A stretch of 64,000 nucleotides of DNA from Patescibacteria group bacterium (GCA_041665365.1 JBAYIY010000001.1:29041-93040), one strand, 5' to 3'. Counted from the first letter of the stretch, positions 21,001 to 38,109 are shown. Program-made: numbers and translations. The notes: a model not told the origin generated them from the sequence alone.

Positions 21001-21806
21001 AAATTTTTTGGAATGACAACCGAGACAATCGCATTATTGCCGTAACGCACCATCGATGTGACTGTGGCGGACTTGAACAATTCACTGCTGGCATCAACAA
21101 CTTGTTCAACGGTACCAATAATTAAACCGGCCGGAATATATTGATCTTGCCCATTGGTGACAATCATGTCTCCAGCCTGCAAGGGGTAGTCTTTTAAAAT
21201 ATATTGTAACAACAGACTAGTACCGAATTGGCCAACGACTAACCCACTGGTAGCATCTTCCGCCTGCGTTTTGGCTTGAATAGCACTATCATCATTAGTA
21301 ATTAGACGAACCTCACTGTAGGATTCATGTACCGCTGTAATCACACCCAACATCAAACCTGGCCCATATATAATTGGATAACCCACCTGAACATTGTCAG
21401 CATTACCAATGTTGATATACAGCCATTGTCCGACCGTACTATCACCCACCCTGGTTAATACTTTAGCCGGCTGTAAGGTATAATCGCGCTCTTGGGCAAA
21501 CGCTAACTCAGCGCTGTATTCTTCATATTGTTTTTGCTGTTGTTGCAAATCGTGATTTTGTTGCACTAAACTAGCCAGTTGATCTTTCATGGTTCGGTTT
21601 TCTGCTAAGAGTGTGCTATCGGTTGTACTGTATAAAGGGCTGTAAGAATCAATCGCCGCATAGGTTAAACTCATGGTGGGTTGTACGATTAAACTTAACC
21701 AGTGCTCGATTGGACGCAACCAACCCGCATAATAAACCACCACGGCTACACCGATCACGGCGAGCAGAGCTAACCATTGCCGCGCCTGATCTTGAATAAA
21801 TTTCAT
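20997..21806 (-). CDS. mreC: rod shape-determining protein MreC
   Basis: N-terminal TM helix, coiled coil and beta-rich C-terminal domains. Sits between mreB and mreD. Confidence 0.75.
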   Translation of the reverse strand: MKFIQDQARQWLALLAVIGVAVVVYYAGWLRPIEHWLSLIVQPTMSLTYAAIDSYSPLYSTTDSTLLAENRTMKDQLASLVQQNHDLQQQQKQYEEYSAELAFAQERDYTLQPAKVLTRVGDSTVGQWLYINIGNADNVQVGYPIIYGPGLMLGVITAVHESYSEVRLITNDDSAIQAKTQAEDATSGLVVGQFGTSLLLQYILKDYPLQAGDMIVTNGQDQYIPAGLIIGTVEQVVDASSELFKSATVTSMVRYGNNAIVSVVIPKNL

Positions 21807-22846
21807 GTCTGACTAGTGAAGATGATGGTTTGTTTCATCGCCTCAAGATCTTCTAGTACTAATCCGGTACCACGCGCCACAGCTGTTAATGGATCATCCA
21901 CCACGTGCACGGGAATTTTTGTTTCGGCAGCGATACGATCATCCAGCCGTTTTAATAGTGCCCCGCCACCGGTTAACATGATACCGCGATCATAAATATC
22001 TGCGACCAACTCGGGTGGAGTTGTTTCAATGGTATTACGAATACTCTCAATGATATTACTAATGGCTCGTTCCAAGGCAGCGCGCACATGCCGACTGGTT
22101 AAAGTTAATTCACGTGGTAAACCGGTGATCAAATCACGGCCGCGCACTGGCATGTCTAATTCCTCATCTAATGGCAGGGCTGAACCCAATTGTATTTTTG
22201 CCTGTTCGGCTGTCCGCTCACCAATTAATAAATTAAATTCATCACGCACAAAATTAACAATATCTTGGGTAAGATCATCTCCGGCCGTGCGTAAAGAACG
22301 CCAATTCACCACGCCACCTAACGCAATCACCGCCATTTCTGTAGTACCGCCACCAATATCTACAATCATCGTACCAATCGATTCCCCCACCGGTAGACGT
22401 GCGCCGATAGCTGCCGCCATTGGTTCTTCAATTAAAATTACTTCCTTGGCACCGGCATTACGCGCCGCATCTTCCACTGCTTTACGTTCCACTTCAGTCA
22501 CACCGAGTGGTATCGCTATCACCACGCGCGGGCGCGGTAAAATAGAAAATGATTCGCGATGGACTTTATCAATAAAATGTTTCAACATTTTTTCCGTGAC
22601 TTCGAAATCAGACACAACTCCTTTTACTAAGGGACGAGTCGCAATAATATGAGCTGGTGTTTTTCCGACCATCGCTTTAGCGTCTTGACCAACGGCTAGA
22701 ATTTGATCGGTTTGTGTGTTTACAGCCACAACAGATGGCTCATTGATAATGATGCCACGATCGCGCACATACACTAAAGTGTTGGCCGTACCGAGGTCAA
22801 TGCCAATATCTTTGGATACGCTACTAAAGAGATTTTTGAAATTCAT
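21803..22846 (-). CDS. mreB: rod shape-determining protein MreB
   Basis: Actin-fold 'IGIDLGTANTLVYV' phosphate-1 motif. Operon mreBCD-mrdA. Confidence 0.9.
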   Translation of the reverse strand: MNFKNLFSSVSKDIGIDLGTANTLVYVRDRGIIINEPSVVAVNTQTDQILAVGQDAKAMVGKTPAHIIATRPLVKGVVSDFEVTEKMLKHFIDKVHRESFSILPRPRVVIAIPLGVTEVERKAVEDAARNAGAKEVILIEEPMAAAIGARLPVGESIGTMIVDIGGGTTEMAVIALGGVVNWRSLRTAGDDLTQDIVNFVRDEFNLLIGERTAEQAKIQLGSALPLDEELDMPVRGRDLITGLPRELTLTSRHVRAALERAISNIIESIRNTIETTPPELVADIYDRGIMLTGGGALLKRLDDRIAAETKIPVHVVDDPLTAVARGTGLVLEDLEAMKQTIIFTSQT

Positions 22847-24068
22847 GATAGTTATTTATGTACTGTTCAGGGGTGACTAATTGTGTGGCTTCAGCTTGCC
22901 GTTGTTTCCATTCCAATTTCCCGGATGTTTTTTGACCAATAATTAATCGATCCGGCAAACCGAGCAAATCAGCATCAGCTAATTTATTCCCCACTGAAGT
23001 AATACGGTCGTCATAGAGTACCGAAATTTGCGCTTTTTGTAAAGCCGCATAGATCGTATTAGCCTGAGTACTATCTTTATTCAAGTTGATTAAGTGCGCC
23101 TGATATGGTGCCACACTCACTGGCCAAATAATACCTTTGTCATCATGATAGATTTCAACAATTGTGCCCAATAACCGCGTTAAGCCGATACCGTAACAGC
23201 CCATCACCACTGGCTGTTTCTGGCCGGTCTCGGCGGTAAACTCGAGCTTAAATGGTTCAGAAAACTTCGTCATTAACTTAAAGATGTTACCCACCTCAAT
23301 AGATTTTTTGGTATCAAATTGATCGTTGTCACAACTTGGACAAGTAGGAGTTTCTGACTTTATTTCTTTATTGATAGCCAAATGACATTGGGTGCAGATA
23401 AAAATAATATCTTCCCCTGCCTCAGTCACAGTTTGAAATTCGTGCGAATATTTTGCAAACGCCCCACCCGAGGCAAATGTCAAATAAGTAGTGTCGGCTA
23501 AACCCATCCGCTTAAAAATATTTTTGTAGGCTTGAGTGACTGCATCATAATATTTATCCAAATCTGACACTGAGCTATGAAAAGAATACATGTCTTTCAT
23601 CAAAAACTCTCGTCCGCGCAGAATGCCAGATTTAGGACGCAATTCTTTTCTAAATTTATGTTGAAACTGATACACCGCACACGGTAAATCTTTATAAGAT
23701 TGCACATATTGTTTTACTAGCGGCACAACAATTTCTTCATGAGTGGGACCTAGAGTATATTCATGACCAGCTTCATCTTGTAATTTATAGAGAATGTCAT
23801 GCATCGTATCCCACCGTCCGGTTTTTTGCCAATTCGCTTTCGGTTGCAAAGCCGGCATAGAAACTTCTTGCCCACCAACTAGGTTCATTTCCTCTCGAAT
23901 AATACCAGCAATACGATTAACCACTAAATTTCCCAAGGGCAATAATGTATAAACCCCGGCCATTAGTTTACTGATATAACCAGCGCGCAACAATAATTGT
24001 GCGTTAATACTAGTTTCCTCTTGATTGATCGATTTACTGGTTTTGGTAAACAACTGAGATTGACGCAT
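22824..24068 (-). CDS. proS: prolyl-tRNA synthetase (compact, no large editing insertion)
   Basis: Class II motifs and the 'YAIGLTRLLG' tail. 414 aa indicates no INS editing domain. Confidence 0.8.
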   Translation of the reverse strand: MRQSQLFTKTSKSINQEETSINAQLLLRAGYISKLMAGVYTLLPLGNLVVNRIAGIIREEMNLVGGQEVSMPALQPKANWQKTGRWDTMHDILYKLQDEAGHEYTLGPTHEEIVVPLVKQYVQSYKDLPCAVYQFQHKFRKELRPKSGILRGREFLMKDMYSFHSSVSDLDKYYDAVTQAYKNIFKRMGLADTTYLTFASGGAFAKYSHEFQTVTEAGEDIIFICTQCHLAINKEIKSETPTCPSCDNDQFDTKKSIEVGNIFKLMTKFSEPFKLEFTAETGQKQPVVMGCYGIGLTRLLGTIVEIYHDDKGIIWPVSVAPYQAHLINLNKDSTQANTIYAALQKAQISVLYDDRITSVGNKLADADLLGLPDRLIIGQKTSGKLEWKQRQAEATQLVTPEQYINNYHEFQKSL

Positions 24069-24072: not shown

Positions 24073-25164
24073 TTATCGCACTAGCCCCACGACATCTTTG
24101 ATCGTAACGGCCATAATGAATAATAAGAAAATAACAAACCCAATATTATGCACAATAATTTGCCATTTAGTTGGCACCGGTCGCCGAATAATGGCTTCCA
24201 CGACTACAAAAATAAGTTTTCCGCCATCCAGTGGTGGAAACGGTAATAAATTGAAGATGGCTAAATTGATTGACAGCATCCCAGCTAATTGTAAGAGATA
24301 AATGAAACCGAGTTGGGTCGCTTGATAGGTAATGCGCGCAATACCAACCGGTCCTGATACACTGCTCGAGACATCAACACCATGGAAAGCCCCAAGAATT
24401 AATCCACCCAGGGCTTGTAAGATTGCCACGGCGAATTTGTTGGTATAACGCGTCGCCTCAATGATAGCTCTATACCAGGGTAGGCGGACCGTACCAGATT
24501 CAACGAAATATGCCCCAATCCCTGCCGAGCCATCGGCTAACTGAATAGTGCTTGTATTCAATTCAAGGATTGTCTGGTCACGTTTAATGGCTAGTTTAAT
24601 CGGTGAATTTGGTAATACCGTTTTGAGTATGTCCTTGACTGCCACCACCGAACTGACTGTTTTACCATCTACAGCCACAACACTGTCAGAAATTTTTAAC
24701 CCAGCTTGAGCGGCGGGAGTATCAGCCGAAATGTCTGCCACTAAGATGGTCGGATTCGATACAGTGGCACCGGGTGGTAACTGATCAATATTTGATGGCA
24801 TACCGATCATATAGCCAACTGCAAATAAGCCAATGGTCAAAAGGTAATTCATGACAATACCAGCAATTAAAATCGCAAAGCGTCGCCACAAACTCTTAGC
24901 CATAAAATCATCTGATTGCTGATGATGTGGCTCATCATTCTCTTCAATCACACCTTTAATTTTGACGAAACCACCTAAGGGAATAGCATTAACGGAATAT
25001 AAAGTTTTACCAAATTTTTTTCCAAACAAGCGCGGTGGAAAGCCGAACCCAAACTCATCTACTTGTACTCCATTTAACCTGGCCACAATAAAGTGGCCAA
25101 ATTCATGGACTAATACCAACAGACCAAGGATGCAGATAAAACTAACCACTGACAATATCATCAT
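24073..25164 (-). CDS. rseP: RIP zinc metalloprotease RseP (M50, with PDZ)
   Basis: 'HEFGHF' motif in TM1, a PDZ-like middle domain, and an LDG motif near the C-terminus. Confidence 0.85.
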   Translation of the reverse strand: MMILSVVSFICILGLLVLVHEFGHFIVARLNGVQVDEFGFGFPPRLFGKKFGKTLYSVNAIPLGGFVKIKGVIEENDEPHHQQSDDFMAKSLWRRFAILIAGIVMNYLLTIGLFAVGYMIGMPSNIDQLPPGATVSNPTILVADISADTPAAQAGLKISDSVVAVDGKTVSSVVAVKDILKTVLPNSPIKLAIKRDQTILELNTSTIQLADGSAGIGAYFVESGTVRLPWYRAIIEATRYTNKFAVAILQALGGLILGAFHGVDVSSSVSGPVGIARITYQATQLGFIYLLQLAGMLSINLAIFNLLPFPPLDGGKLIFVVVEAIIRRPVPTKWQIIVHNIGFVIFLLFIMAVTIKDVVGLVR

Positions 25165-25694
25165 AATGTCATGACATCAGCCGCTTTCTTATCAGCTAAC
25201 GTAGTTACCTCCTTATTATATTGATCGACTAATTTTTGAATGTTTTTTTGTTCAGCAAAAGCTTGATCTTCAGACATGGCTTTATCGACTTTCTTAGTTT
25301 TAATGTCATTCATACATTCTTCACGCAGTAATTTAATATGAACTTTAGCCGCTTCGGCTCGATCTGACACTAATTTCACAATTTCTTTACGTTTTTCTTC
25401 AGTTAAAGGTGGAAAAGGCAAACGAACGACGGCGCCATCGACAGTTGGATTATAATCACGTCCACACATCCGTAACGCCCGCTCGACATCTTTGAGAATA
25501 CTTTTATCCCAGGGTTGAATCACTAACTGCGTCGCTCCTTGACTGGTAATAGTGGATAATTGTGATAGCGCTGTTTTTGTGCCGTAGGCTTCGACCAGAA
25601 CATCATCCAACACGGCTGGCGTCACTCGCCCAACTTGTAATCCAAGTAATTCTTTTTGAAAATGGGCAATGATATTAGCAAATTTTTCTGTCAT
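25161..25694 (-). CDS. frr: ribosome recycling factor
   Basis: Full-length alignment-like similarity ('VRLPFPPLTEEKRKE'). Confidence 0.9.
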   Translation of the reverse strand: MTEKFANIIAHFQKELLGLQVGRVTPAVLDDVLVEAYGTKTALSQLSTITSQGATQLVIQPWDKSILKDVERALRMCGRDYNPTVDGAVVRLPFPPLTEEKRKEIVKLVSDRAEAAKVHIKLLREECMNDIKTKKVDKAMSEDQAFAEQKNIQKLVDQYNKEVTTLADKKAADVMTL

Positions 25695-25703: not shown

Positions 25704-26813
25704 TTATTTAGGTTGCTTAAGCAAGCCACTTTGTTCTTCAACTTTAAACATCCCAGCATACATGACATTAGGCGTTTGGGGATCAATTAAATAGCGATAA
25801 ATTTTTCGCACGGACGGAAAATTCTCAATCACTTTCCAGGTGACACCCGCATCAACCGATTTATGCACAACATTATTTAATGTGAAAAATATTTCATTGG
25901 AATTACCTGGTGTTGTCCAGACATTTCTAATGTCATCATTTTGTTTATCATCAGCACCAATTAACGTTACAATGTCACTCCATGTCGTACCATTATCGGT
26001 ACCGCGCATAATGCCGCGCCGGGTGACAATAAATACAATGGTCGAATCATTACTATCCAACGCCATATCATCGACTTTATCGGCTCCCGGAAATTGTTGT
26101 TTAAAATCTTTATCTAATAACAACGTCCAACCAGAATTAATGGTGTCGGCTGTTTCATCCGGAATTGGTTCCCCACCATTGTCAGTTTTATAAACATAAC
26201 CATCAGTGTTTAACACATAAATAATTCTGGTATCATGTTTGGCGATAAATATCCGTTTAATCCCATCCCCTTTTTGCATACGTAAATCCCAATTAACTCC
26301 GTAATCAACACTCTTTAAGAGAGTCCCGGCTGACGTACCAGCATAAACCCGATTATGTTCATAGTTATCCACCACTACTGTAGTAATAGATGCACCTTGC
26401 ACATCACTATAAACTGTTTCCCAGCTCACACCTTGGTCAGATGATTTTAATACTTTAGTATCTTGTGCGACATAAACATTGTTTGGATCAACCGGGTCAA
26501 CTGCAATCGCATTAATCGTGCCCGTATTAACCTGTTGTGATTGAATCCAACTCTCGCCACCAGTTAAGGTAATATATAATCCCTGCCCGGCTGTACCGAT
26601 ATAAATAATATTTGGATCAGTTGGGTGGAAGGTCATCGCCAGAATATTTAGATCACTAATAGTAACGGCGGTTTTACCATTCATTTTTACAAAATTCACT
26701 TGTTCCCAATTTTCTCCTGAATCAAGCGAGCGAAACACACCGCCGTCAACGCGTTGATTACAACTAGCACCTAACAATAATACTGGTAGAAGAAAAAGGG
26801 CGAGTTGTTTCAT
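25704..26813 (-). CDS. secreted BNR/Asp-box repeat beta-propeller protein
   Basis: Signal peptide and at least six S-x-D-x-G-x-T-W Asp-box repeats ('SSDQGVSWETV', 'SVDYGVNWDL', 'GTDNGTTWSDI', 'SVDAGVTWKVI'). Confidence 0.65.
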   Translation of the reverse strand: MKQLALFLLPVLLLGASCNQRVDGGVFRSLDSGENWEQVNFVKMNGKTAVTISDLNILAMTFHPTDPNIIYIGTAGQGLYITLTGGESWIQSQQVNTGTINAIAVDPVDPNNVYVAQDTKVLKSSDQGVSWETVYSDVQGASITTVVVDNYEHNRVYAGTSAGTLLKSVDYGVNWDLRMQKGDGIKRIFIAKHDTRIIYVLNTDGYVYKTDNGGEPIPDETADTINSGWTLLLDKDFKQQFPGADKVDDMALDSNDSTIVFIVTRRGIMRGTDNGTTWSDIVTLIGADDKQNDDIRNVWTTPGNSNEIFFTLNNVVHKSVDAGVTWKVIENFPSVRKIYRYLIDPQTPNVMYAGMFKVEEQSGLLKQPK

Positions 26814-27586
26814 AAGATGGGATTAATATTCAAAAGTAAGTTAGTATAAATAAATTTGGCTTGCACCGCCTGAGCTGACTGTCGTCTAGCCTGAGCCACC
26901 AGGGTTAAACCGTGCAGGGCTGCTGCCGTCGGCAAGGCTTGATACAGGACAAGTTCAATTTGATCCAACACTTCAGATAATTGATCAGCTTTGATGATAT
27001 CACCAAGGCGCTCAGCACTGGGACGTTGTAATAACACGCGATAACGTTCCAAGCTCGGCTGCAGTTTTTTGAGCTGTTTCACCTTGCCTGGCAACCCTTG
27101 CGCCAATGGCAGCATATTAGCCTGAGCGGGAAAGGCCGCTATCATAGCCGCATCACTGACGCGCTCAAACCAGAGCACCTGGCAGCGTGATTGCACTGTA
27201 CTAGGGATATTGTCTAGGGCGGTCACTAACAAATATATCGTCACACGACTACGTGGCTCTTCGAGCACCTTTAGTAGGGCGTTCCAAACTTGGTAGCTTA
27301 GCTCCTGTGCTTGATTGATAACGATAGCCCGCTGCCCTGACCACAAACTTGTTTCCATAGTCGTGGCTATCATGGCTCGAGCTGTTGTCAGATCAAAATC
27401 GGCTCCGGAAAACCAAGCTACATTGGCCTCAGCTAAATTGGCAAGATGCTGGCTCAGAAAAGTGGTTTTACCGATATGTTCTGGTCCAACCCATAATTGA
27501 GCTGGCGGGACTATACCACTTTTTTGCAGATTTTGCAAATACTGTTGGATCATTTTGTTTCCAACTAACTCGATCTTCTTAGGCAT
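26810..27586 (-). CDS. holB: DNA polymerase III delta' subunit
   Basis: AAA+ fold with degenerate Walker A 'GPEHIGKTTF'. Confidence 0.7.
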   Translation of the reverse strand: MPKKIELVGNKMIQQYLQNLQKSGIVPPAQLWVGPEHIGKTTFLSQHLANLAEANVAWFSGADFDLTTARAMIATTMETSLWSGQRAIVINQAQELSYQVWNALLKVLEEPRSRVTIYLLVTALDNIPSTVQSRCQVLWFERVSDAAMIAAFPAQANMLPLAQGLPGKVKQLKKLQPSLERYRVLLQRPSAERLGDIIKADQLSEVLDQIELVLYQALPTAAALHGLTLVAQARRQSAQAVQAKFIYTNLLLNINPIL

Positions 27587-27590: not shown

Positions 27591-28757
27591 CTAGTCTACT
27601 TGGGATAACAAAACTTGCCAAGTTTGTTCAGCGCAACGTTCCCAAGAAAACTGCTTAACTTGAGTTAAACTTTTCTGACGAGCCACACTCTGATCAGCTT
27701 GCAAACAAGTTAAAATGGTTTGAGCCATATGGTGAGGATCGGTCTGGTTAAAAAACCAACACGCCTCACCGCCCACTTCCCGCAAGGCTCCAATATCTGA
27801 ACAAGCTACTTTTGTTCCCACGGCTAGCGCTTCAAGCACCGGGATACCAAAGCCCTCATAGTGTGACGGAAAAATAAAGGCACTCGCTTGGCGCATGAGA
27901 TCGGGTAAAGCACTAGCTTCGGTATAACCCAAGAATTTAACATCCCGCTCTAGTTTTTGATCTTTCACCAACTGGGTTATTTGTTCATAACCAAAACCAG
28001 GTTGCCCAGCTAACCAGAGTTGCTCGGGAATGTGTCTAGTGTGTTTTAATTCAGCAAAAGCTAAAATTAAATTATTGATGTTTTTCTTTAACTCAATACG
28101 GCCAACAAAAAACAGATACGATTGTGTCATGGTTACTTTATTCGGTGTCTCATAGTATGATGTTCGATCATAACCATTGTGCACTACGGCTATTTTATGA
28201 TCAGACACTGTATAACAATTTTGTAATTCATGTTTAGTGAATTCAGAAATAGTGATTATTTTTTTGGCATGACGCACTGCAAAGCGCATGGAGTAACGGT
28301 GATAATCCAACTCAGTCGTGCCATATTTACCGAGTGTTAAAATTTTTATTAACCAGTGTAAAATTTTTCCACCAATATAAGTATTGGCATACAAGGCGGC
28401 ATTGCGTTCAAACCCTAAATCATGGGCGACATAGACAGTGTTTCTGACATGAATTAATGGAATGGTATGAGCCGGAATGAAGAGCACATCCGGCCTAAGC
28501 CATGGTACCAGCATGGTGAGAGATAAACGTAATTGCGTCCATAATAATTTGGGTGGCCAGCGCAATATTCGTATTTCCCAATCGGCTGGTAAATCTTTCA
28601 GATCAGCTACTAATGGTTCTTTGAGATACAACACAATGTGGTGTTGAGTTGGATCGTAAATGCGGGCAAAGTTTTTTAATAAATAATAACAATACCACTC
28701 TGTACCAGTGCGCTGTCGAACATTCGCCCGAGAGGCATCGATACCGATCGTAATCAT
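27591..28757 (-). CDS. GT4 family glycosyltransferase
   Basis: 'FPSHYEGFGIPVLEALAVG' GT-B signature. Confidence 0.8.
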   Translation of the reverse strand: MITIGIDASRANVRQRTGTEWYCYYLLKNFARIYDPTQHHIVLYLKEPLVADLKDLPADWEIRILRWPPKLLWTQLRLSLTMLVPWLRPDVLFIPAHTIPLIHVRNTVYVAHDLGFERNAALYANTYIGGKILHWLIKILTLGKYGTTELDYHRYSMRFAVRHAKKIITISEFTKHELQNCYTVSDHKIAVVHNGYDRTSYYETPNKVTMTQSYLFFVGRIELKKNINNLILAFAELKHTRHIPEQLWLAGQPGFGYEQITQLVKDQKLERDVKFLGYTEASALPDLMRQASAFIFPSHYEGFGIPVLEALAVGTKVACSDIGALREVGGEACWFFNQTDPHHMAQTILTCLQADQSVARQKSLTQVKQFSWERCAEQTWQVLLSQVD

Positions 28758-29761
28758 CGGGTCGACAAAATAGATCGTTTGTAGGATTCCAAATTTTCTA
28801 GAGCAATACCCGTACCTTTCACCACATTTTGTAACGGATCATCCGCTAAATAAGCCGGTACATTGATCGCGCGCGCCAATAATTCATCCAAATTTCGCAG
28901 CATCCCGGAACCACCCGATACAACCATGCCTTTATCAATTACATCAGCCGACAACTCGGGCGGCGTGTCTTGCAAAACAGATTTTACAGCTTGCACAATA
29001 CCCTGCAGTTCATCCTGAATGGCTTCAGTGATATCATCTGATGTAACTGTAGCCGTGCGCGGTAAACCGGTGACCATGTCACGCCCACGCACATCCATCG
29101 ATAATCGATCGGTCATCGGTAAAGCCGAACCAATTTTGATTTTTAATTCTTCTGCACTCCGTTCCCCAATGGCTAAATTAAACTGTTTGCGCACATACTC
29201 TTGAATAGCCGCATCAAACTTGGTGCCGCCAATGCGCACAGATGTATTGGCCACAATTCCGCCCAAGGAAATAACCGCAATTTCACTAGTGCCACCACCA
29301 ATCTCAATAATCATATGCCCCGAGGCTGAACCAATCGGAATCCCCGCACCAATCGCTGACGCCACCGGTTGCTTGATAATAAAAGCCGCTTTCGCTCCGG
29401 CTTGTAACGTAGCATCAATTACCGCCCGACGTTCTGTGGAAGTAATACCAGCCGGTACCGCGATCATCACTTCCGGACTAATAAACCGGACACCACCTAA
29501 TGCCTTATTAATAAAATAACGCAACATACTTTCCGTAGTTTTATAATCCGCAATCACCCCTTCTTTTAGTGGACGTTTGGCCACGATGGTATCCGGTGTA
29601 CGGCCTAACATTTCACGCGCTTCACTGCCCACAGCTAACACCTTGCCGTCATGTTGACTAACGGCCACAACGGACGGTTCATTTATAGCAATACCGCGCT
29701 TAGGTACGTAAACCAATGTGTTTACAGTCCCAAGGTCGATTCCAATTTTTTTAACAAACAT
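28754..29761 (-). CDS. MreB/Mbl-type actin-like protein (second paralogue)
   Basis: 'IGIDLGTVNTLVYV'. ~55-60% identical by eye to the mreB at 21803-22846. Its ATGA stop/start overlaps the downstream GT4 gene. Confidence 0.85.
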   Translation of the reverse strand: MFVKKIGIDLGTVNTLVYVPKRGIAINEPSVVAVSQHDGKVLAVGSEAREMLGRTPDTIVAKRPLKEGVIADYKTTESMLRYFINKALGGVRFISPEVMIAVPAGITSTERRAVIDATLQAGAKAAFIIKQPVASAIGAGIPIGSASGHMIIEIGGGTSEIAVISLGGIVANTSVRIGGTKFDAAIQEYVRKQFNLAIGERSAEELKIKIGSALPMTDRLSMDVRGRDMVTGLPRTATVTSDDITEAIQDELQGIVQAVKSVLQDTPPELSADVIDKGMVVSGGSGMLRNLDELLARAINVPAYLADDPLQNVVKGTGIALENLESYKRSILSTR

Positions 29762-29766
29762 AAGGT

Positions 29767-31740
29767 TTACTTATAGTCGACTGTCATGACCACATCACGC
29801 CATAAAGGCATTGTCAAATGCACCTTAGTATTATCAATTGTAACGGTTTCGTCAAGAGCCTGAGCGGCTAAGACTTTTCGCCCGGCATCAATGTTCATAG
29901 TGGCTGTGACATTGTTTGTCCCTGGCTGTTTTTGCCAGGTTAACTGATATGTACCAGCCATAATTTGCTCACCAATGCGCTCGGGCAACCGATAACTCAA
30001 CTTGATGGTATCCTCAGTTTTAGGCTCAACCGAAATGAACCCGCCAAACACAGTTTTATGCACAGCCTCATCTTCACTACTAGTGGCTGCTACGGGGTCT
30101 CCACCTAAATAGCGATCGTTTGTTAAAAATCCTTCACTACTAAGTAACTCACTACCAATCGGCGCATAGATTCTGGTATAACTGCGATAGCGTGTGGTGA
30201 AATCATCAAACACACCATCGTTTTTATAGTGCATAACGATATCCGCCTGCCAGTGATCACCGACTTTGGTGACAGTATAATCAATTGTCTTAGTCATGAC
30301 TCGATCGGTTTTTTTGGCGGCCAAATTGGCATCGATCACCATTAAATAATCGTTATCTGTTACCGTGACAGAACCATCCCACCCAATCTGATGCATTAAA
30401 TTCTGCACGGCAGCATCATTGGAATACACCAAGAGATGTTTTTCTTCAAAGTTAGTAATGGCTAGATCACCCAATTTACCCCAATCAGACTGCGGCAAAT
30501 TCATCACGCGATTCATAATCTCAGCGGCTAGCTTACCAATGACGGCTTTACGCGCTGCGTCGGACACCCCTTCCTTATAATAGGCAATTTCCACTTGATA
30601 TTGTAGTTTTTCAGTGAGATTATCAGCATTATATTCATCACCATCAATCACAATCGGGCCGGTAATCACAAGTAAATCATGAATCACTTCCGGCGTTACG
30701 GCAATCACACCATCGATGTGGGTGGTGGATTGTGATTCACGAGTATAAAAATCTTCGGCGCGGGCGGCTGAGGTAGGAAAATCAGGATCCCAATTAGAAT
30801 CGCGCAGATACCAACGTGAGGCATCGAGATATTTTTGTAATGGTTCCGGTGGAGTTTCCGACCAAGTATATTTTACTTTGTTATCAATATTATAAATATT
30901 ATCGGTTTTAAATTCTTCAATGTTACCGCTTTTCAATTGCAAAATACCGTAGGTGCCAATAAAACCCCCGGTTGGTCTTAATTCGGTATTGTTTTGTAAA
31001 AGAAACAGATAAGTTTTACTGTCTGGATAACCAGCAATGGTTGGTGCCACTGTTAAAAATGGTAAACCCTTATTAACCGCTGCCTCAATATTAGGCAGAT
31101 TGGTTTTAATAGTACTGACAATGATAGCTAATGGTCCAATCACGCCTTTATCCGGCAAGTCTTGCAGGGCGGTGACAGAGGCTTGTAAATCAGACTGAGC
31201 CGCCGTTAATGTATCTGGCGATTCACTAATAGTTTTTAAAAAGGCCTCGCGCTCCGCTTTACCAATTTTATTAGCGGTCGTACTTTTGTCACCCACTAAT
31301 TTATCGACTTCTTGAATGATTTTCACGAGTGGTTTACCGGCTTGTATGCCCTTATCACTGGCCAACAAAAGCTGATCCACTACCTGAAATTGTGTATGCA
31401 CATACGGCAACCATTTGATGGGCCATAAGCCATCTGATGCCGCCCGGGCTAAAGTAATATGTTCCGACGCTTGATTTAAATTGTCATTTATTGCCGTATA
31501 TTTCTTATCGGCAATATTCTGTTGTATCTTAGTAGCATCATTTTTCAGCGCCATACCAGCCTGGTATAAGCGCCGGGCTTGATAAGTTGAATACCCTCCG
31601 ACTATCAGTAGAATCACAATGACGACAAATAAACCTATATATAAAGGTTTACGATTGCGACGCCGTTTTGGTCCAATCACTTTAGCTGGTGTATCAACCG
31701 AACGAATCTCAGGAATTTTTTCCATAACCTTGTTTAGCAA
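29767..31740 (-). CDS. DUF4012-like single-pass membrane protein with large extracytoplasmic domain
   Basis: Basic cytoplasmic tail 'KRRRNRK', one TM helix, and a ~600-aa exterior domain. Architecture and context resemble DUF4012 proteins of cell-envelope polysaccharide loci. Confidence 0.45.
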   Translation of the reverse strand: MLNKVMEKIPEIRSVDTPAKVIGPKRRRNRKPLYIGLFVVIVILLIVGGYSTYQARRLYQAGMALKNDATKIQQNIADKKYTAINDNLNQASEHITLARAASDGLWPIKWLPYVHTQFQVVDQLLLASDKGIQAGKPLVKIIQEVDKLVGDKSTTANKIGKAEREAFLKTISESPDTLTAAQSDLQASVTALQDLPDKGVIGPLAIIVSTIKTNLPNIEAAVNKGLPFLTVAPTIAGYPDSKTYLFLLQNNTELRPTGGFIGTYGILQLKSGNIEEFKTDNIYNIDNKVKYTWSETPPEPLQKYLDASRWYLRDSNWDPDFPTSAARAEDFYTRESQSTTHIDGVIAVTPEVIHDLLVITGPIVIDGDEYNADNLTEKLQYQVEIAYYKEGVSDAARKAVIGKLAAEIMNRVMNLPQSDWGKLGDLAITNFEEKHLLVYSNDAAVQNLMHQIGWDGSVTVTDNDYLMVIDANLAAKKTDRVMTKTIDYTVTKVGDHWQADIVMHYKNDGVFDDFTTRYRSYTRIYAPIGSELLSSEGFLTNDRYLGGDPVAATSSEDEAVHKTVFGGFISVEPKTEDTIKLSYRLPERIGEQIMAGTYQLTWQKQPGTNNVTATMNIDAGRKVLAAQALDETVTIDNTKVHLTMPLWRDVVMTVDYK

Positions 31741-32533
31741 GTTTTAAATAGGTTAACCAATCTTTAATATGAATGCGTGTTGTGTAATTTAGCAAACTCC
31801 CAAACCCACCCCAGAATGAATGTTGGGCTGATTCGCGTCGATGATAATGCACAATAGACACGTCGGGATAGTATATCACTTTATAGCCATGTGCACGAAT
31901 GCGATCGCATAATTCAAAATCAGCAAAATAAAGGAAAAAATCTTCCTGTAATGCACCTACTGTATCTAAAACAGATTTACGCGCGACTAACACGGCACCT
32001 AATAACCAATCCACTTCCCGCACCGACTGGTGATCAAAATCTACCATTAAATGATTGGCTAAATCTTGTTTGGCAAAAGCTAATTTACCTAACGGTGTGC
32101 GCCGATAAAGCGGAGTTAGTTTTGAATATGGCCGAAAACAAGATGATTGAATCGAACCGTCGCCGTTAGTTAATTTTGGTCCTAACAAAGCAATATCGGG
32201 ATGATCATCTAAATACTGACACAGTTTAGATAAATCAGCCGGGTTTAAAAATATCACATCACTATTCATGATCACGATATAGTCTCCTTTAGCTTCCTTA
32301 ATACCAAGATTATTGCCTTTGGCATGACCGGTATTAGTCGGGCTAGCAATTAGTTTAATCTTAGGATAATATTTTTGCATCATCGCCACACTGCCGTCAC
32401 CGGAGGCGTTATCAACCACGATAATCTCAGACGGCACAGTTAAGTTTAAACTAAGCAAATTTTTCACCGCCAAACGTAATAAATGTTTGGTTTTATAGTT
32501 TAAAATAATGAAAGATAATTTTATGTCGGTCAT
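31709..32533 (-). CDS. GT2 family glycosyltransferase
   Basis: 'LSFIILNYKT...IIVVDNASGDGS' and 'MNSD' DxD. Confidence 0.8.
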   Translation of the reverse strand: MTDIKLSFIILNYKTKHLLRLAVKNLLSLNLTVPSEIIVVDNASGDGSVAMMQKYYPKIKLIASPTNTGHAKGNNLGIKEAKGDYIVIMNSDVIFLNPADLSKLCQYLDDHPDIALLGPKLTNGDGSIQSSCFRPYSKLTPLYRRTPLGKLAFAKQDLANHLMVDFDHQSVREVDWLLGAVLVARKSVLDTVGALQEDFFLYFADFELCDRIRAHGYKVIYYPDVSIVHYHRRESAQHSFWGGFGSLLNYTTRIHIKDWLTYLKLAKQGYGKNS

Positions 32534-33450
32534 AAAGCTAACTGTCTTTTTTTAATCATTTTAGGAAGCAGTCGAAACATGGTTGGAAACATGCGTAAAG
32601 TGGACCATTCGAAAATCAAGACATAGCCGAGTTTAACACATTCGTACGGTAACAACCAGGGCAGGCGTTTTAACCAATCAAATAATGACAGATTCTTAAA
32701 TAACAGCCAAATATGGTTACGGTAGGACATAGCCCGAATTAAAGCCGATTTTTGGCCACGTCCAGCCAAAGTAGTCTGTTGAATGGAGCGGGCATGATAG
32801 ATGACGGCCGTTGGTTCATACCACACCGTATAACCGGTGCGATGTAAACGCCAGCTTAAATCAACATCCTCTTTATAGGCGACAAAATCACTGTCAAAAC
32901 ATTCACTTGTGATAGCCGACCGACGCAATAACATACCGGCTCCGGTAATACCAAAAACTTCCTCAGCTGAATCATATTGACCCGTATCGGCCACTTGCTC
33001 TCCCCGATTAACCGCTCGCCCACTTCTTTTTAAAATCAGACCAGCACTATCAAAAATTTTACTAGGTTGACCATCGATCAATTTCAACATTTTGCCTCCA
33101 ACCATGGCACAGTGCGTGTCTTGCTGCATTCGCTCAACGAGACGTGTGATACTAGTGGGAGTTAAAATAATATCATCGTTACAGATATAAATATATTCTC
33201 CAGTGGCAACCTTAATGCCTTGATTATTGCCTTGCGCAAACCACACGTTAGTTTTATTGACAATTAATTGATCAACTGGACGAACGGTTTGATGTTGTAG
33301 CCAATCGACCGTACCGTCGGTTGAAGCATTATCAACTACGATTACTTCCACATCTGGATAAATTAATTTAGCTAACGATGCAAACAAGGCTGGCATGTGC
33401 CGCTGACTATTATAAGTAAGAATAATAATACTAACTCTGGCTTTGGTCAT
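32530..33450 (-). CDS. GT2 family glycosyltransferase
   Basis: 'VSIIILTYNS...VIVVDNASTDGT' and 'CNDD'. Confidence 0.8.
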   Translation of the reverse strand: MTKARVSIIILTYNSQRHMPALFASLAKLIYPDVEVIVVDNASTDGTVDWLQHQTVRPVDQLIVNKTNVWFAQGNNQGIKVATGEYIYICNDDIILTPTSITRLVERMQQDTHCAMVGGKMLKLIDGQPSKIFDSAGLILKRSGRAVNRGEQVADTGQYDSAEEVFGITGAGMLLRRSAITSECFDSDFVAYKEDVDLSWRLHRTGYTVWYEPTAVIYHARSIQQTTLAGRGQKSALIRAMSYRNHIWLLFKNLSLFDWLKRLPWLLPYECVKLGYVLIFEWSTLRMFPTMFRLLPKMIKKRQLAL

Positions 33451-34828
33451 AAACAGTACTAATTGATAAAGCTAATGCTATCCAACCTAAGCCGAGCGGA
33501 TGATTCAGATATGGTGTCAACATATGTACAAAAGCCAGAGCCACTACACCTAAACCGGCGGTTAGACTGTAAAGATTATTTTGAGAAAACAATCTGATAG
33601 ATAAAGCAGTTATAATACTAACATATAGTAATACTCCTACCAAACCAAGTTTTAACCATAGATCAAGGTAACCCCACTCAAACGCAAAAGTGGTAAACCA
33701 ACCAGATTGATTATTAGTCAAAGCGCGCGGATCTTTGGTTTGATAAGTCACCGTAGTGCCAAAACCCGAACCAAGCAAGGGATGTTGTAAAGCAGCTAGA
33801 GCCAAGGGTTTTAATAGAGCTAATCTTGAGCCACTAGCCGCTTCGGTTGTGACATCACTGGTACGATCAGACAATAAACTAGCGGCATCAACCCCTGAGC
33901 CACTACTAAACAGTGGCACGTTAATAATGGCCAAAATAAACATGTATCCAATAATTGCACTACTACCAACAATTAAGAGATAATATAATCGTTGCTTAAA
34001 AAATATTAAAAATATAATTATTATCAATCCGGTTGCTACCCAAAAACTTCTGGAATAACTGAGCACTAGTAAACTTACTGTTACAACCGATAACACATAG
34101 AAATATTTGGCACGGTGTTTTAATAATAGAGCGGTGCTCGTAAAAATAAACGCTAACAACACATAAATGTGGCTCTGAAAAAAAACTCTGGTGAAATGAT
34201 TAGCTTGGACGGTGACTTCCGCTAAACGAAAATCACGCACCCAGCGATATAGTTCAGGTAGATAATACCCAAAGGCACCCGGGTGTGAATATAAAAATAA
34301 TATGAACACTGATTGGATCGCCAAAACAGTCACACCGGCTAACAATACTGTGAAGAGATTTTTAATATCTTGTTCAGTTTTAACCGCTTGCACAAATGGT
34401 ATCACCATGGCAATAAATAAATATCCATTCATGTCTAAAAATATTTTAGCCGGATCATTGTGATAGATTAAGGCTGTCAACACTGCGAGACCAAACACCC
34501 CAACTAACCCAACCCACCATTTCCAATAATTGGTTTTAAAAAACCGAATTTGTTTATCTCGAATAATCCATACAATCGTCGCTAACATAATAACCAAAAA
34601 TATCCCTAAGCGTAACTGCCCAATTAAATGACCCTGCGAACCGATAACCAATTCGGCCAACACGCCAGCTATGCCATAGTGCAAGCGATATAAACTAGCC
34701 AGTAAGACGAGTAATAAAATTATACCCAAGACAATATTTTTCCAACTCGGGTAACTGTAAACCAACCAAGATAATCCCTCTACGGCTAGCAAAATTGCTA
34801 ACCAACTAGCGTACCACTTGATTCGCAT
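33431..34828 (-). CDS. O-antigen ligase/polymerase (Wzy/WaaL family) membrane protein
   Basis: About 11 TM helices with a large periplasmic loop. Set in a polysaccharide locus. Confidence 0.6.
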   Translation of the reverse strand: MRIKWYASWLAILLAVEGLSWLVYSYPSWKNIVLGIILLLVLLASLYRLHYGIAGVLAELVIGSQGHLIGQLRLGIFLVIMLATIVWIIRDKQIRFFKTNYWKWWVGLVGVFGLAVLTALIYHNDPAKIFLDMNGYLFIAMVIPFVQAVKTEQDIKNLFTVLLAGVTVLAIQSVFILFLYSHPGAFGYYLPELYRWVRDFRLAEVTVQANHFTRVFFQSHIYVLLAFIFTSTALLLKHRAKYFYVLSVVTVSLLVLSYSRSFWVATGLIIIIFLIFFKQRLYYLLIVGSSAIIGYMFILAIINVPLFSSGSGVDAASLLSDRTSDVTTEAASGSRLALLKPLALAALQHPLLGSGFGTTVTYQTKDPRALTNNQSGWFTTFAFEWGYLDLWLKLGLVGVLLYVSIITALSIRLFSQNNLYSLTAGLGVVALAFVHMLTPYLNHPLGLGWIALALSISTVYDQSQS

Positions 34829-35657
34829 AAGCTAAAAACATACTAACCGGATGTAATGTAATAAACCACAGATAAGCCAACACCCCGTTATGCTTACGCA
34901 TGTAGGTTTGTAAGCTATGGTTAAAAATGCGCTGCGCCGTAGGCCGAGCCAATTGTTTAAAACTTTGTCCTTTAGCATGAATACAGGTCAAACTTGGCTC
35001 ATAGCGCACCACATAACCATCGAGTTGTAATTTACGTTGCAAATCAACTTCTTCAAACCAGGCGAAATAATCTTTATCAAAACCGCCATAGTGTTTAGCT
35101 AAAACCGTTGGCATAAACATAAAGGCGCCCATCACCTGGGGAACACAAGCCGGTTTGGTATAATCAAAATCAATCATGAGATATTTATCAACTAAATGCG
35201 GAAATAAATGATGTAACTTTAATTGAATCACAGTTTGATCAGATACCCTGGGCCAAGCGCGCACGGTTGGTTGAATTGAACCATCACGATTCAATAATTT
35301 CACTCCGACCATACCCAATTTGGCTTGACTAGTTTTAAATAGTTTTAGCAAATCTGGAAAAATATTACTAACCAACTCACAATCATCATTTAAAAAAAGC
35401 ACATACTCCCCTTGCGCTTGAATGAGGGCTTGATTATTAGCCGCCCCAAACCCTTTATTATCTGGGTTGCGCAGCAAGTGAACCTGAGGAAAGTCTTGTG
35501 CCACCATGTCCGCTGAACCATCAGCGGAGTTATTATCAACCACAAAAATTTCATAGTTACAGTCGGTCGTATATTGCGCAATAGAGTGTAAACACGAGCG
35601 TAACTGTGCACGCACATTCCAGGACACAATGATGATAGAAATGTCAATCATGGGCAT
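34806..35657 (-). CDS. GT2 family glycosyltransferase
   Basis: 'ISIIIVSWNV...IFVVDNNSADGS' and 'LNDD'. Confidence 0.8.
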   Translation of the reverse strand: MPMIDISIIIVSWNVRAQLRSCLHSIAQYTTDCNYEIFVVDNNSADGSADMVAQDFPQVHLLRNPDNKGFGAANNQALIQAQGEYVLFLNDDCELVSNIFPDLLKLFKTSQAKLGMVGVKLLNRDGSIQPTVRAWPRVSDQTVIQLKLHHLFPHLVDKYLMIDFDYTKPACVPQVMGAFMFMPTVLAKHYGGFDKDYFAWFEEVDLQRKLQLDGYVVRYEPSLTCIHAKGQSFKQLARPTAQRIFNHSLQTYMRKHNGVLAYLWFITLHPVSMFLAYANQVVR

Positions 35658-36658
35658 TACTTTAGCATGTCATTAAATTGTTGCCTACGGTGCTCCCAAG
35701 TTTGGTTTAGTACCCAGTGCTGTGCGGCAGATTCTAGTTCAGCATAGTTTTTTCGTTGCAAAGCCTTAATCAGATCAGCTGGATTAGTGGGATCAACTAA
35801 GATACCGGTAATACCATCTTGAATTGCTTCACTCATGCCACCAGAGCGCCCACCGATACAGATTTTACCGAAACTATTCGCCTCTAAAGCCACTATTCCA
35901 AAACCTTCGACATCGCCATTAGATAATTGCCGAGCCGGCATAACCAAACATGTACAATGTTGGTAGAGATAAGCAATTTCTTGATCTGATAAATTTTTTA
36001 AAATATGCACTCTTTTTTCTAATTTATATTCTTTTATTAACTCGTTTAATCTTGGTTCATCTTGACCTGAGCCCGCTATTACATAATGTATTTCGGGTAT
36101 TTTATTTAGTGCCTCAATTACCCGATCAAACCCTTTTCTTTCAACCAAACGACCCACTGATAGAATAAATTTTTCCGGTATCGGCTCGGCTGGTTTTACA
36201 ACACCGGTGGTTGGAGTGATATGAGCCGCTGGATGAATCACTGTAATATTTTGTAAAGTTCGATCAAAAGTGAACAGCAGGTTTTTGGTATAGTCTGACG
36301 CCGCCACAATATGTTGCGCATGTCGTAAGATTCGTTTCAGTAACCAGCGTTTACGCCAATATGTTTGCGGTACCAAAACATCCATACCGTGCGTAAAAAC
36401 AATATATGGTTTTTGAGTTAATAATTTAACAACCAACGCTACGGTGCCTAAGGGTAAAACCTGTCCCACTAAAACATGAGAATAATTATACAAACGAACT
36501 TGACCAATTAACCACGGAATCATCAGCCACCAAGGCTTGGGCATATCTAATCTGGTGGCTACTTTGCAGCGTAACAAATTATGGTAATAATTAGCCACGC
36601 CGCCTACATCCGGCGGATACTCTAGGGTTATTAAGAGCGGGTACGCATTTGTTGCCAT
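35657..36658 (-). CDS. GT4 family glycosyltransferase
   Basis: 'MPARQLSNGDVEGFGIVALEANSFG' GT-B C-terminal domain. Confidence 0.75.
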   Translation of the reverse strand: MATNAYPLLITLEYPPDVGGVANYYHNLLRCKVATRLDMPKPWWLMIPWLIGQVRLYNYSHVLVGQVLPLGTVALVVKLLTQKPYIVFTHGMDVLVPQTYWRKRWLLKRILRHAQHIVAASDYTKNLLFTFDRTLQNITVIHPAAHITPTTGVVKPAEPIPEKFILSVGRLVERKGFDRVIEALNKIPEIHYVIAGSGQDEPRLNELIKEYKLEKRVHILKNLSDQEIAYLYQHCTCLVMPARQLSNGDVEGFGIVALEANSFGKICIGGRSGGMSEAIQDGITGILVDPTNPADLIKALQRKNYAELESAAQHWVLNQTWEHRRQQFNDMLK

Positions 36659-38109
36659 AACACCTTTATTTCACTAAATTTTACACCACCAAAGACGAAC
36701 AATAAACCGACATAAATAATAATGCAGACACTTAATATCAATAAGAATATCATACTGGTATGATCCAGACTTTGCTGTAACCACCAGGCTAACACAGCCA
36801 TGATACTGGCAGACAACAAACTAATGCCGGCTTTTTTTAGAATAACCAAACTGCGAAATTCCGTCAGTTGATACACATACGGTAAACCCAGTAAGACTAA
36901 AACGATGGCACTGAGAGTGGCCGCCAGAGCTGCCCCCATGTAGGTATATTGCGGAATCAAAATGATGTTTAAGACAACGTTAACACCTAAAGCTATGCCC
37001 ATGTTTAACGTATTGGTTAATTGTTTATTGGCGGCATTCAAAGCATTGCCAATGGGATAATTCGCAAATAAAAACACTACCCCAGCCATAAACAATTGTA
37101 AGGCCGGAATTGTGGCCGGAAAATCTTTAAAAGCTAACTGAATAATATCTGGTGCCAACACATAAGTACCCAAAGCGATTGGTATGCTTAAAAATAATAA
37201 CAATATACTAGTTTGTTCAAAAATGTTACGAAAAGATTCTTTTGATTGCAATAGCGCTTGACTCATCGCCGGGAAAAAAGCGGTCGCAAAAGCGCCTGGT
37301 AAAACGGTTAAGGTAATAGTTAATTTTAGCGCGATACTGTACCAGGCCACATAGCGATCCCCAGCTAAATAATTTAACATCACTGTATCAATTGAACCGT
37401 TCAATTTAAAAAATATATCAGCCAGGGCAAACGGTGCGGCCATAATAAATAGCTGACGCATAGTTGGCCAATGCCACTGCCAGCCTAACCGAATGTCGGT
37501 TTTACGATACAATATATAAACAGCATAGAGTAAATACAAAACACTGGCACAGTTAATGGCAATAATTAAACCGCCCGCTTTATAACCGAAGAAAAAAAAT
37601 GTTCCGCCAATAACCACTACAGCGATCTGGTAAAAAACTTGACCAATCGCCTCATACTGCATGAGTTGCTGCGCGCGTAAGACGGCAAAGATAACCGATC
37701 GAAAGGTATCGAACACAATAATACCGATAGCCAAATAAACCAGCATGACTGTATACGCTGGCATTGGTTTGTATAAATTTAAAATATGAAACAGACCAAT
37801 CAAAACCACAACGCTGACAATCGTTAGAATAATTTTTAACGATAAAGCCTGCTTAAAATATTCCTGTAATCGTTCTGGATTCTTGGCACCCTGCCGCGTT
37901 AAAACCGGAATCAAACCAAAATTCATCAAGATTACAAAAATACTTGTGTACGTAACCGCAAAGGTGTATTTCCCTAATAACTCATCCCCCGCTGGTATAG
38001 CCAGTTGATGGGCAATGTAGGCGAACCACCAAAACGCCAGAGCTTTTTGAGCCATGGACGATAAGGTGAGATAAGTAGCATTCTTTGCTAAGACGCCAGA
38101 TAGCGTCAT
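36631..38109 (-). CDS. Wzx-type polysaccharide flippase (MOP superfamily)
   Basis: About 14 TM helices and the 'polysaccharide biosynthesis protein' topology. First gene of the locus. Confidence 0.65.
   Translation of the reverse strand: MTLSGVLAKNATYLTLSSMAQKALAFWWFAYIAHQLAIPAGDELLGKYTFAVTYTSIFVILMNFGLIPVLTRQGAKNPERLQEYFKQALSLKIILTIVSVVVLIGLFHILNLYKPMPAYTVMLVYLAIGIIVFDTFRSVIFAVLRAQQLMQYEAIGQVFYQIAVVVIGGTFFFFGYKAGGLIIAINCASVLYLLYAVYILYRKTDIRLGWQWHWPTMRQLFIMAAPFALADIFFKLNGSIDTVMLNYLAGDRYVAWYSIALKLTITLTVLPGAFATAFFPAMSQALLQSKESFRNIFEQTSILLLFLSIPIALGTYVLAPDIIQLAFKDFPATIPALQLFMAGVVFLFANYPIGNALNAANKQLTNTLNMGIALGVNVVLNIILIPQYTYMGAALAATLSAIVLVLLGLPYVYQLTEFRSLVILKKAGISLLSASIMAVLAWWLQQSLDHTSMIFLLILSVCIIIYVGLLFVFGGVKFSEIKVLWQQMRTRS

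Follow-up and report, generated by a model that had tools for sequence, protein, structure and literature searches.

Does a bacterium with a canonical rod complex possess a second actin-like protein that serves its surface glycans? This question is raised by a 64,000-nucleotide stretch of DNA from a Patescibacteria group bacterium (GCA_041665365.1, JBAYIY010000001.1:29041-93040), referred to here as the window. The gene in question, mreB2 (28754-29761, minus strand), encodes a protein of 335 aa that matches PF06723 MreB_Mbl (E 2e-130). It is flanked by the gene of a DUF4012 single-pass membrane protein (29767-31740, minus strand, 657 aa from a TTG start, PF13196 E 1e-33), and by the glycosyltransferase gene GT4a (27591-28757, minus strand, 388 aa, Pfam Glycos_transf_1 E 3e-29 and Glyco_transf_4), whose product belongs to the GT-B retaining-type family 4 (GT4). 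Judged by its sequence, MreB2 is a member of a second MreB clade specific to the Candidate Phyla Radiation (CPR), the MreB2-type, and is not an ordinary MreBH copy. Proteins identical or near-identical to those of the window are annotated as Patescibacteria or Candidatus Kerfeldbacteria, which the NCBI taxonomy places in the Parcubacteria group of the CPR.

A first inspection of the sequence alone (the sequence-only reading) had described a second full-length MreB in a glycan locus, between a DUF4012 protein and a GT4, in addition to a separate canonical mreBCD-mrdA set. Coordinates and Pfam matches agree with this description. MreB2 lies where a Wzx/Wzy-type glycan cluster ends, at a distance of 6 kb from mreB1-mreC-mreD-PBP2. 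The canonical rod complex was found at 18696-22846 and consists of MreB1 (21803-22846), MreC (20997-21806), MreD (20518-21000), and PBP2 (18696-20558), all on the minus strand and identified with Pfam. The genes for MreC, MreD, and PBP2 are thus linked to MreB1 and not to MreB2, whose flanks are DUF4012 and GT4. The stop codon of MreB2 overlaps the start of GT4a in an ATGA at 28754-28757, which can be read directly in the sequence as had been noted, and a gap of only 5 nt separates the stop of DUF4012 from the start of MreB2. The minus strand is the coding strand for every gene from 15.5 to 41.4 kb.

Phylogeny and conservation of MreB2

The match of MreB2 to PF06723 reached 434.7 bits (cut-off 27) and covered model positions 2-326 of 327. 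The generic MreB models NF010539 and TIGR00904 were likewise matched above their cut-offs, with 446 bits (cut-off 293) and 434 bits (cut-off 366), respectively. Both MreB2 (375 bits) and MreB1 (422 bits) stayed under the cut-off of the MreBH model NF010540 (515). The two proteins of the window share 49% identity. Among MreBs of solved structure, MreB2 matched those of Geobacillus stearothermophilus, Thermotoga, and Caulobacter with 362, 326, and 309 bits, compared to 370, 360, and 342 bits for MreB1.

Neighbour-joining trees with 100 bootstraps were calculated from 82 MreB2 and 53 MreB1 sequences of related loci, 113 full-length representatives from a search of a 1.84-billion-protein library, and four reference MreBs (E. 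coli, Caulobacter, Thermotoga, and Geobacillus). The 82 MreB2 orthologues formed a clade of their own with a bootstrap of 100, apart from the MreB1 clade (bootstrap 89), and the paralogue comparison proposed in the sequence-only reading therefore sets MreB2 apart from MreB1 and, by the model cut-off, from MreBH. The window carries MreB2 and MreB1 on a single contig, as do 53 further loci. In an extended tree, 33 Parcubacteria MreBs of 335 aa, found with the nearest outgroup, and the protein P0243 were added. MreB2 and the added sequences then formed a combined MreB2-type clade with a bootstrap of 60, in which the ABY1-type and the Parcubacteria subclades reached 100 and 98, and which leaves out all MreB1, the references, and the 113 library representatives.

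The Parcubacteria MreB2-type proteins show 53-63% identity to MreB2 and 43-51% to MreB1. They have in common with MreB2 the signature K5, E97, T109, K130, H149, S159, and N290. When 15 signature positions were scored, ABY1-type proteins reached 12-15, the Parcubacteria members 6-13, and MreB1 together with the reference sequences 0-3.

MreB2 was the most conserved of 19 neighbouring genes, with a median identity of 78% versus 28-62%. Over the same genome pairs, its rate was about 0.55 times that of MreB1 (slope 0.54), and the MreB2 and MreB1 distances were correlated (Pearson 0.71). The correlation points to vertical descent under strong constraint, rather than to transfer or redundancy, and recent horizontal transfer was rejected on these grounds as the cause of the high identity of MreB2. 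The comparisons show that the MreB2-type, present across the CPR, is an old actin-like protein that was passed on vertically and kept under very strong constraint.

The top match in the protein library, P0241 (1010 aa), was considered as a DUF4012-MreB fusion and rejected. It is an unrelated protein from outside the window with an N-terminal Ser/Thr protein kinase domain and two tandem MreB domains. Protein P0244 also carries portions of two MreB domains.

Active site, membrane loop, and filament interface

The phosphate motifs D9-L-G-T12 and G155-G-G-T158 of MreB2 are invariant across the clade, and the adenosine motif is G283-G-S/T285. At position 153, the phosphate-2 Asp, 54 orthologues have D and 28 have E, the protein of the window among the latter. 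At position 131, aligned to E140 of Caulobacter, the window protein and 27 further orthologues carry Gln. Among the orthologues of loci L001-L084 the two positions co-vary perfectly, with E/D in 54, Q/E in 28, and no mixed states, so that the window protein reads 'KQP' and 'EIGGGTSE' in place of the 'EEP' and 'DIGGGT' motifs. The Kerfeldbacteria core has the Q/E pair, as do loci L059, L062, L065, L070, and L072. In MreB1, the active-site pair is Q/D in 10 out of 53 sequences.

The attacking water is positioned by a catalytic Glu and a Thr, which are E140 and T167 in Caulobacter (PMC4051119). T158 of MreB2, aligned to T167, is invariant in the clade. The window protein accordingly retains the catalytic Thr and lacks the catalytic Glu, which is replaced by Q131.

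MreB2 possesses a hydrophobic loop, R92-F93-I94, aligned to L93/F94 of T. maritima, with the clade consensus R-[FLI]-F. It has no N-terminal extension; MreB1 carries the extension MNFKNLFSSVSKD, which resembles the amphipathic helix of E. coli MreB. Residue T109 of MreB2 aligns to V118 of Caulobacter and V121 of E. coli in the inter-protofilament interface. Thr occupies this position in 99% of the MreB2 sequences, compared to Val in 100% of those of MreB1. Mutation of the position in Caulobacter or E. coli leads to the loss of double filaments, to single protofilaments, and to round cells (PMC4051119).

Position of MreB2-type genes across the CPR

Five distant CPR contigs were compared, including Nealsonbacteria, Minisyncoccales, and Patescibacteria. 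The gene order in these contigs is AlaRS, followed further on by S13, S11, S4, RpoA, L17, L13, and S9, a variable slot, the MreB2-type gene, HolB, RRF, RseP, in some cases ProRS, and an MreB1-type gene. The window shows the identical frame, with AlaRS, the operon from S13 to S9, a seven-gene glycan cluster, and then MreB2, GT4a, and HolB. The ribosomal operon from S13 to S9 also precedes the MreB2-type gene in the Parcubacteria contigs L094 and L095. In other lineages the slot between S9 and MreB2 contains a Cas4-like gene, a PEGA protein, hypothetical proteins, a GT2, or MurA, and MurA is located directly upstream of the MreB2-type gene in four out of the five distant contigs.

In four of the five Parcubacteria-type contigs, MreB2 and holB overlap by up to 10 nt or are up to 14 nt apart, and in the fifth, L092, a gene of 195 aa lies between them. 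GT4a is an insertion into this otherwise tight MreB2-holB junction. Near the MreB of a distant Patescibacteria contig, we found a GT4 whose homology to GT4a extends along the entire protein (29% identity, E 6e-41), and in another lineage a WecG/TagA-type glycosyltransferase is located beside a related MreB. Envelope-related cargo, namely MurA, PEGA, GT2, the WecG/TagA-type glycosyltransferase, and GT4, thus recurs repeatedly next to MreB2-type genes and nearby MreBs.

Differences between the lineages extend to MreB1, which in the Parcubacteria contigs (L086-L095, compared with 15.5-46.5 kb of the window) is followed by gatC/gatA and not by mreCD.

Neighbours of MreB2 in related genomes

Relatives were searched in one genome per GTDB species, which gave 80 loci with MreB2 orthologues of 72-95% identity, mapped by open reading frames (ORFs) and tblastn. 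Labels among these loci include Kerfeld-, Komeili-, Uhr-, Veblen-, and Falkowbacteria. Of the 78 informative loci, 57 have GT4a directly downstream of MreB2, six a Wzy_C gene, and two a Bac_transf priming transferase. The gene directly upstream is DUF4012 in 49 and GreA in 18 of the same loci. The DUF4012-MreB2-GT4 triad is intact in 41 out of 80 genomes. The linkage of MreB2 to DUF4012 and GT4, which had been named as a point on which a role in glycan assembly would depend, therefore holds in most of the 80 species-level genomes. The glycan-cluster gene order of the window recurs in relatives, on which two independent look-ups concur. Median gaps between MreB2 and its adjoining genes are 3-4 nt, with a median of 3 nt between MreB2 and GT4a.

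Three layouts were distinguished. In layout A, a cluster of Wzx, GT4, GT2, Wzy, GT2, and GT2 precedes DUF4012-MreB2-GT4a, which are followed by HolB, BNR, RRF, RseP, ProRS, MreB1, MreC, MreD, PBP2, and GreA. In layout B, the run from HolB to PBP2 and GreA comes before MreB2-GT4a-GT4-GT4-DUF4012, with a Bac_transf priming enzyme in some loci. MreB2 is here parted from holB, the MreB2-GT4a junction is kept, and DUF4012 lies three genes after MreB2. In layout C, a Wzy_C protein of 430 aa follows MreB2 in place of GT4.

Two further proteins were considered as divergent DUF4012 members, a 729-aa protein after GT4 in locus L089 and the product of the 719-aa ORF at 46591-48750 of the window. Both were rejected, as neither showed any similarity.

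DUF4012 protein and the glycan-assembly cluster

An identical protein in the NCBI/JGI data, P0121 (100%), has 652 aa, which makes a start of DUF4012 at the ATG at 31725 likelier than at the TTG at 31740. PF13196 matched the protein with 117.3 bits (cut-off 28). Among 8000 candidates scored, 1781 homologues were found at E <= 1e-5, and PF13196 was present in all 120 homologues listed. The alignment-based AlphaFold2 (AF2) model reached a pLDDT of 89.9 and a pTM of 0.85. It predicts a basic tail, a single long transmembrane helix from residue 26, and a large extracytoplasmic body, in agreement with the single-pass topology assigned earlier. In the model, the helix is continued by a bundle of helices that spans about 200 residues (residues 26-230), followed by alpha/beta and beta-sandwich domains. 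Searches of the PDB by fold with this model gave no informative solved homologue. About 50 residues of the ectodomain are invariant, for example in NNxExRxxGGF, RDSNW, and DANxxxxKxD, which suggests that DUF4012 may be an enzyme or may present a specific glycan-binding site.

The cytoplasmic tails of 56 DUF4012 homologues are 4-82 aa long, rich in Lys/Arg, and not alignable, without conserved columns. A short motif near the initiator Met is present in many tails (P0122-P0240), x-N-F-[AL] in about 15 out of 56, or D-F. With the predicted start codons, the tails of the Kerfeldbacteria core begin with I-P-[ED]-I (31648-31725 in the window). Such a short N-terminal motif could act as a docking peptide.

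The DUF4012 family is enriched in the CPR and in Gram-positives, and is widespread in the exopolysaccharide (EPS) loci of the latter (PMC6744442, PMC5412050). Similar to the window protein, BL105A_0406 of Bifidobacterium longum 105-A possesses a DUF4012 domain and is part of a locus of the EPS or capsular polysaccharide type. Unlike in the window, the B. longum gene is located between a priming glycosyltransferase and wzz, with no MreB neighbour reported.

The cluster upstream of DUF4012 encodes GT2a (31709-32533), GT2b (32530-33450), a Wzy_C protein (33431-34828), GT2c (34806-35657), GT4b (35657-36658), and a MurJ-like Wzx/Polysacc_synt protein (36631-38109), all on the minus strand and identified with Pfam. 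Together with GT4a, the locus contains a Wzx flippase, a Wzy_C protein, three GT2, and two GT4, and so the combination of flippase, Wzy-type polymerase, and several glycosyltransferases. A Pfam Wzy_C match is common to polymerases, ligases, and O-oligosaccharyltransferases. Neither an initiating phosphoglycosyl transferase nor a Wzz/PCP co-polymerase was found among the genes at 15.5-41.4 kb. Bac_transf genes are present in the equivalent cluster of the relatives L062 and L070. A WecG/TagA-type glycosyltransferase is encoded outside the cluster, at 8060-8722. Searches for the precise identity of GT4a gave generic GT4 matches only in NCBIfam and the PDB.

Possible roles of MreB2

We see an even chance that MreB2 is a membrane-bound scaffold for envelope-precursor enzymes at the cytoplasmic face, parallel to the MreB1 rod complex. 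MreB2 would attach to the cytoplasmic side of the membrane by its hydrophobic loop (R-F-I/F), without an N-terminal amphipathic helix, and would form filaments separate from those of MreB1, since the conserved Val between the protofilaments is exchanged for Thr. These filaments would be a platform for enzymes that make lipid-linked envelope precursors on the cytoplasmic face. The clients would be GT4 and the Wzx/Wzy pathway in the Kerfeld-/Komeili-/Falkow-type lineage, and in Parcubacteria the neighbour of MreB2 is MurA. Wall elongation would be run in parallel by MreB1-MreCD-PBP2. In favour of this reading are the distinct clade with its shared signature, the ancestral synteny, the recurring envelope-related neighbours, the MreB2-GT4a junction kept in layout B, the strong conservation of MreB2, its hydrophobic loop, T109 in the filament interface, and the precedent of B. 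subtilis MreB. It seems unlikely, though conceivable, that MreB2 throughout the CPR is uncoupled from MreCD-PBP2 and organises the synthesis of lipid-linked envelope glycans on the cytoplasmic face of these ultra-small cells, with the V-to-T exchange separating the filaments and the E131Q/D153E pair tuning filament turnover. A similarly tentative proposal is that it would then serve a surface or S-layer glycan, made via GT4, Wzx/Wzy, and DUF4012, in the Kerfeldbacteria lineage, while in Parcubacteria it would serve precursors dependent on MurA.

Several points weigh against the scaffold reading and a role in glycan assembly. No DUF4012 or GT4 was found near the MreB2-type genes in the five Parcubacteria-type contigs. 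Since MreB2 holds its position without glycan genes in distant CPR, this position is ancestral and the isoform predates the glycan cluster, which is lineage-specific cargo in the variable S9-MreB2 slot, so that the association with glycan genes is a derived state in a single lineage. On the MreB2 tree, the loci of layout B fall into one clade (bootstrap 79) and those of layout C into another (bootstrap 95), which corresponds to about one rearrangement event each, and a linkage resistant to rearrangement was therefore downgraded as strong evidence. Loci of the Uhrbacteria type have the ribosomal protein L21 downstream of MreB2. Twenty-one consecutive genes at 15.5-38.5 kb overlap or are at most 11 nt apart, and the tight spacing also joins unrelated pairs such as RRF/RseP, HolB/BNR, and ProRS/MreB1. 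Adjacency and overlap carry little information when near-zero spacing prevails throughout a co-directional 23-kb array. The translational coupling of MreB2 to GT4 that had been proposed thus stands as far as the overlap is concerned, and fails in its specificity, for which reason the ATGA was rejected as a sign of a specific MreB2-GT4a coupling. The exchange of the catalytic Glu for Gln makes the ATPase behaviour of the window protein uncertain. The deep nodes of the neighbour-joining trees are weak, and the trees were built without the B. subtilis Mbl and MreBH sequences. A DUF4012 tail that tethers MreB2 in the manner of RodZ was rejected as a conserved domain, as the tails are 4-82 aa in length and unconserved. 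The functional link between MreB2 and glycans, drawn from gene context and sequence, is circumstantial.

The proposal of the sequence-only reading was a dedicated MreB2 filament for the synthesis or export of surface polysaccharide, tethered by the DUF4012 tail and outside peptidoglycan elongation, which we consider unlikely. GT4, Wzy_C, or Bac_transf genes downstream of MreB2 in 65 out of 78 loci speak for it, as do DUF4012 upstream in 49, the triad in 41 out of 80, and layout B, which keeps DUF4012 in the same cluster three genes past MreB2. So do the location of mreCD next to MreB1 and not MreB2, and the NF[AL] or IP[ED]I motif at the N-terminus of some DUF4012 tails. However, CPR-wide MreB2-type genes lie beside MurA and holB, without DUF4012 or GT4, in Parcubacteria, the overlap is not particular to MreB2-GT4a, and no MreB link has been reported for the Gram-positive EPS loci with DUF4012 (PMC6744442, PMC5412050). 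The topology of DUF4012, a basic tail before a single helix, fits a tether, but no RodZ-like conserved MreB-binding domain was present in the basic tails of the 56 DUF4012 homologues. Of the dedicated filament, the distinct clade and the kept glycan linkage stood, against which are set the ancestral, glycan-independent position, the non-specific ATGA, and the unconserved tail. Exclusive dedication of MreB2 to polysaccharide export is a possible role on the sequence evidence, and its separation from peptidoglycan elongation is not established, given the ancestral position and the MurA neighbour in Parcubacteria. The same MurA adjacency points to peptidoglycan, and would fit an incidental neighbourhood, the glycan genes having been placed in a permissive slot of a conserved housekeeping array. 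MreB2 would then be a second elongation isoform that functions in the way of Mbl or MreBH and either shares part of the task of MreB1 redundantly or co-polymerises with MreB1.

Such a second elongation isoform appears rather unlikely, although the backbone synteny is kept across the CPR whatever the cargo, the S9-MreB2 slot holds unrelated genes depending on the lineage, all nucleotide-binding motifs are retained in MreB2, and multiple co-polymerising MreB isoforms are known in B. subtilis (PMC7641798). An invariant surface signature, to which the V-to-T interface belongs, sets the MreB2 clade apart, and the N-terminal helix of MreB1 is missing from it, which argues for separate filaments or partners. 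A rate of about half that of MreB1 is unexpected for a redundant copy, the cargo of the slot is repeatedly envelope-related, and the MreB2-GT4a junction survived the separation from holB in layout B. The adjacency of MreB2 and holB, the most widely conserved one outside the ABY1-type lineage, might instead indicate a role linked to holB and apart from the envelope, in chromosome or replisome organisation, division, pili, or host attachment. We regard this as very improbable, since holB, RRF, RseP, and ProRS are a mixed housekeeping run without a common function, a GT4 or Wzy_C gene parts MreB2 from holB in the lineage of the window, and none of the loci examined has genes for segregation, pili, or division beside MreB2.

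Other genes in the window

The ribosomal protein/RpoA operon (S13, S11, S4, RpoA, L17, L13, and S9) is located at 38121-41446 on the minus strand and was identified with Pfam, and AlaRS at 44786-46552. Downstream of GT4a, the minus strand encodes, with Pfam and NCBIfam matches, a HolB-like protein (26810-27586), a BNR/sortilin-like protein (25704-26813), RRF (25161-25694), RseP (24073-25164), and a ProRS-type class II aminoacyl-tRNA synthetase (22824-24068). The HolB-like gene is short (258 aa). The match of its product to the DNA_pol3_delta2 model is confined to the C-terminal part of that model (protein residues 65-142), and its score is far under the NCBIfam holB cut-off (75 versus 181 bits). 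The best NCBIfam match of the BNR/sortilin-Vps10-like protein was the 'F510_1955 family glycosylhydrolase', below the cut-off. Its gene is present between holB and RRF in most ABY1-type loci and absent from the Parcubacteria backbone.

Sequences resembling terminators occur around MreB2 at chance level (16 found versus 16.8 expected), and the promoter-like sequences upstream of MreB2 are weak 9-of-12 matches only.

A second group of envelope genes is present on the plus strand at 8060-15532. It includes genes for a WecG/TagA-family glycosyltransferase (8060-8722), an M23 peptidase (10123-11331), a transglutaminase-like protein (12512-13378), a DegT-type sugar aminotransferase (13375-14535), and a FemAB-family protein (14519-15532). 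Three ORFs on the minus strand, 46591-48750 (719 aa), 6583-8016 (477 aa), and 11400-12464 (354 aa), had no Pfam match at E <= 1e-5.

Relation to known MreB systems and significance

MreB2 shares the fold and the motifs of the canonical MreBs of E. coli, Caulobacter, and Thermotoga, and is known here from its sequence. Unlike these, it possesses T109 in place of the interface Val, and the copy of this genome moreover carries Q131 at the position of the catalytic Glu and E153 at that of the phosphate-2 Asp. The canonical rod-complex role in this genome belongs to MreB1, with its N-terminal extension followed by mreCD and PBP2. Similar to the MreB of Gram-positives and Thermotoga (PMC4051119), MreB2 is predicted to bind the membrane by its hydrophobic loop without an N-terminal helix.

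The presence of several MreB isoforms in one monoderm-type cell resembles B. subtilis with MreB, Mbl, and MreBH. The LCP ligases of B. subtilis, which attach glycopolymers other than peptidoglycan to the wall, were identified with MreB as the bait (Kawai et al., summarised in PMC7831098). Unlike the B. subtilis isoforms, MreB2 belongs to a CPR-only clade, and its neighbours are Wzx/Wzy, DUF4012, and GT4, not tag or LCP genes.

The passages of Takahashi et al. 2020 (bioRxiv 10.1101/2020.05.13.095042) describe that CPR MreBs split into two clades, with both in some species, and place them outside the Mbl and MreBH clades. The two-clade pattern fits the MreB1/MreB2 pair of the window and the Parcubacteria pairs, as a likeness of pattern in which the clades are not matched sequence by sequence. 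That work is a phylogeny, and gene context, synteny, rate, signature, and a glycan link are absent from those passages. While two types of CPR MreB were thus already published, the gene-context, rate, and signature findings on MreB2 appear to be absent from the searchable literature.

The CPR or Patescibacteria are a large and almost uncultured part of bacterial diversity, whose cell biology is essentially unknown. Of the two MreB copies of the window, the one located away from mreCD is the more strongly conserved, above RRF, the aminoacyl-tRNA synthetases, and MreB1. The interface V-to-T exchange, the loss of the N-terminal helix, and the perfectly co-varying active-site pair are testable features of its sequence. 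If MreB2 does organise the synthesis of envelope glycans or their precursors instead of wall elongation, this would represent a clear division of labour between bacterial actins, and would provide a handle on how tiny episymbionts build their surface.

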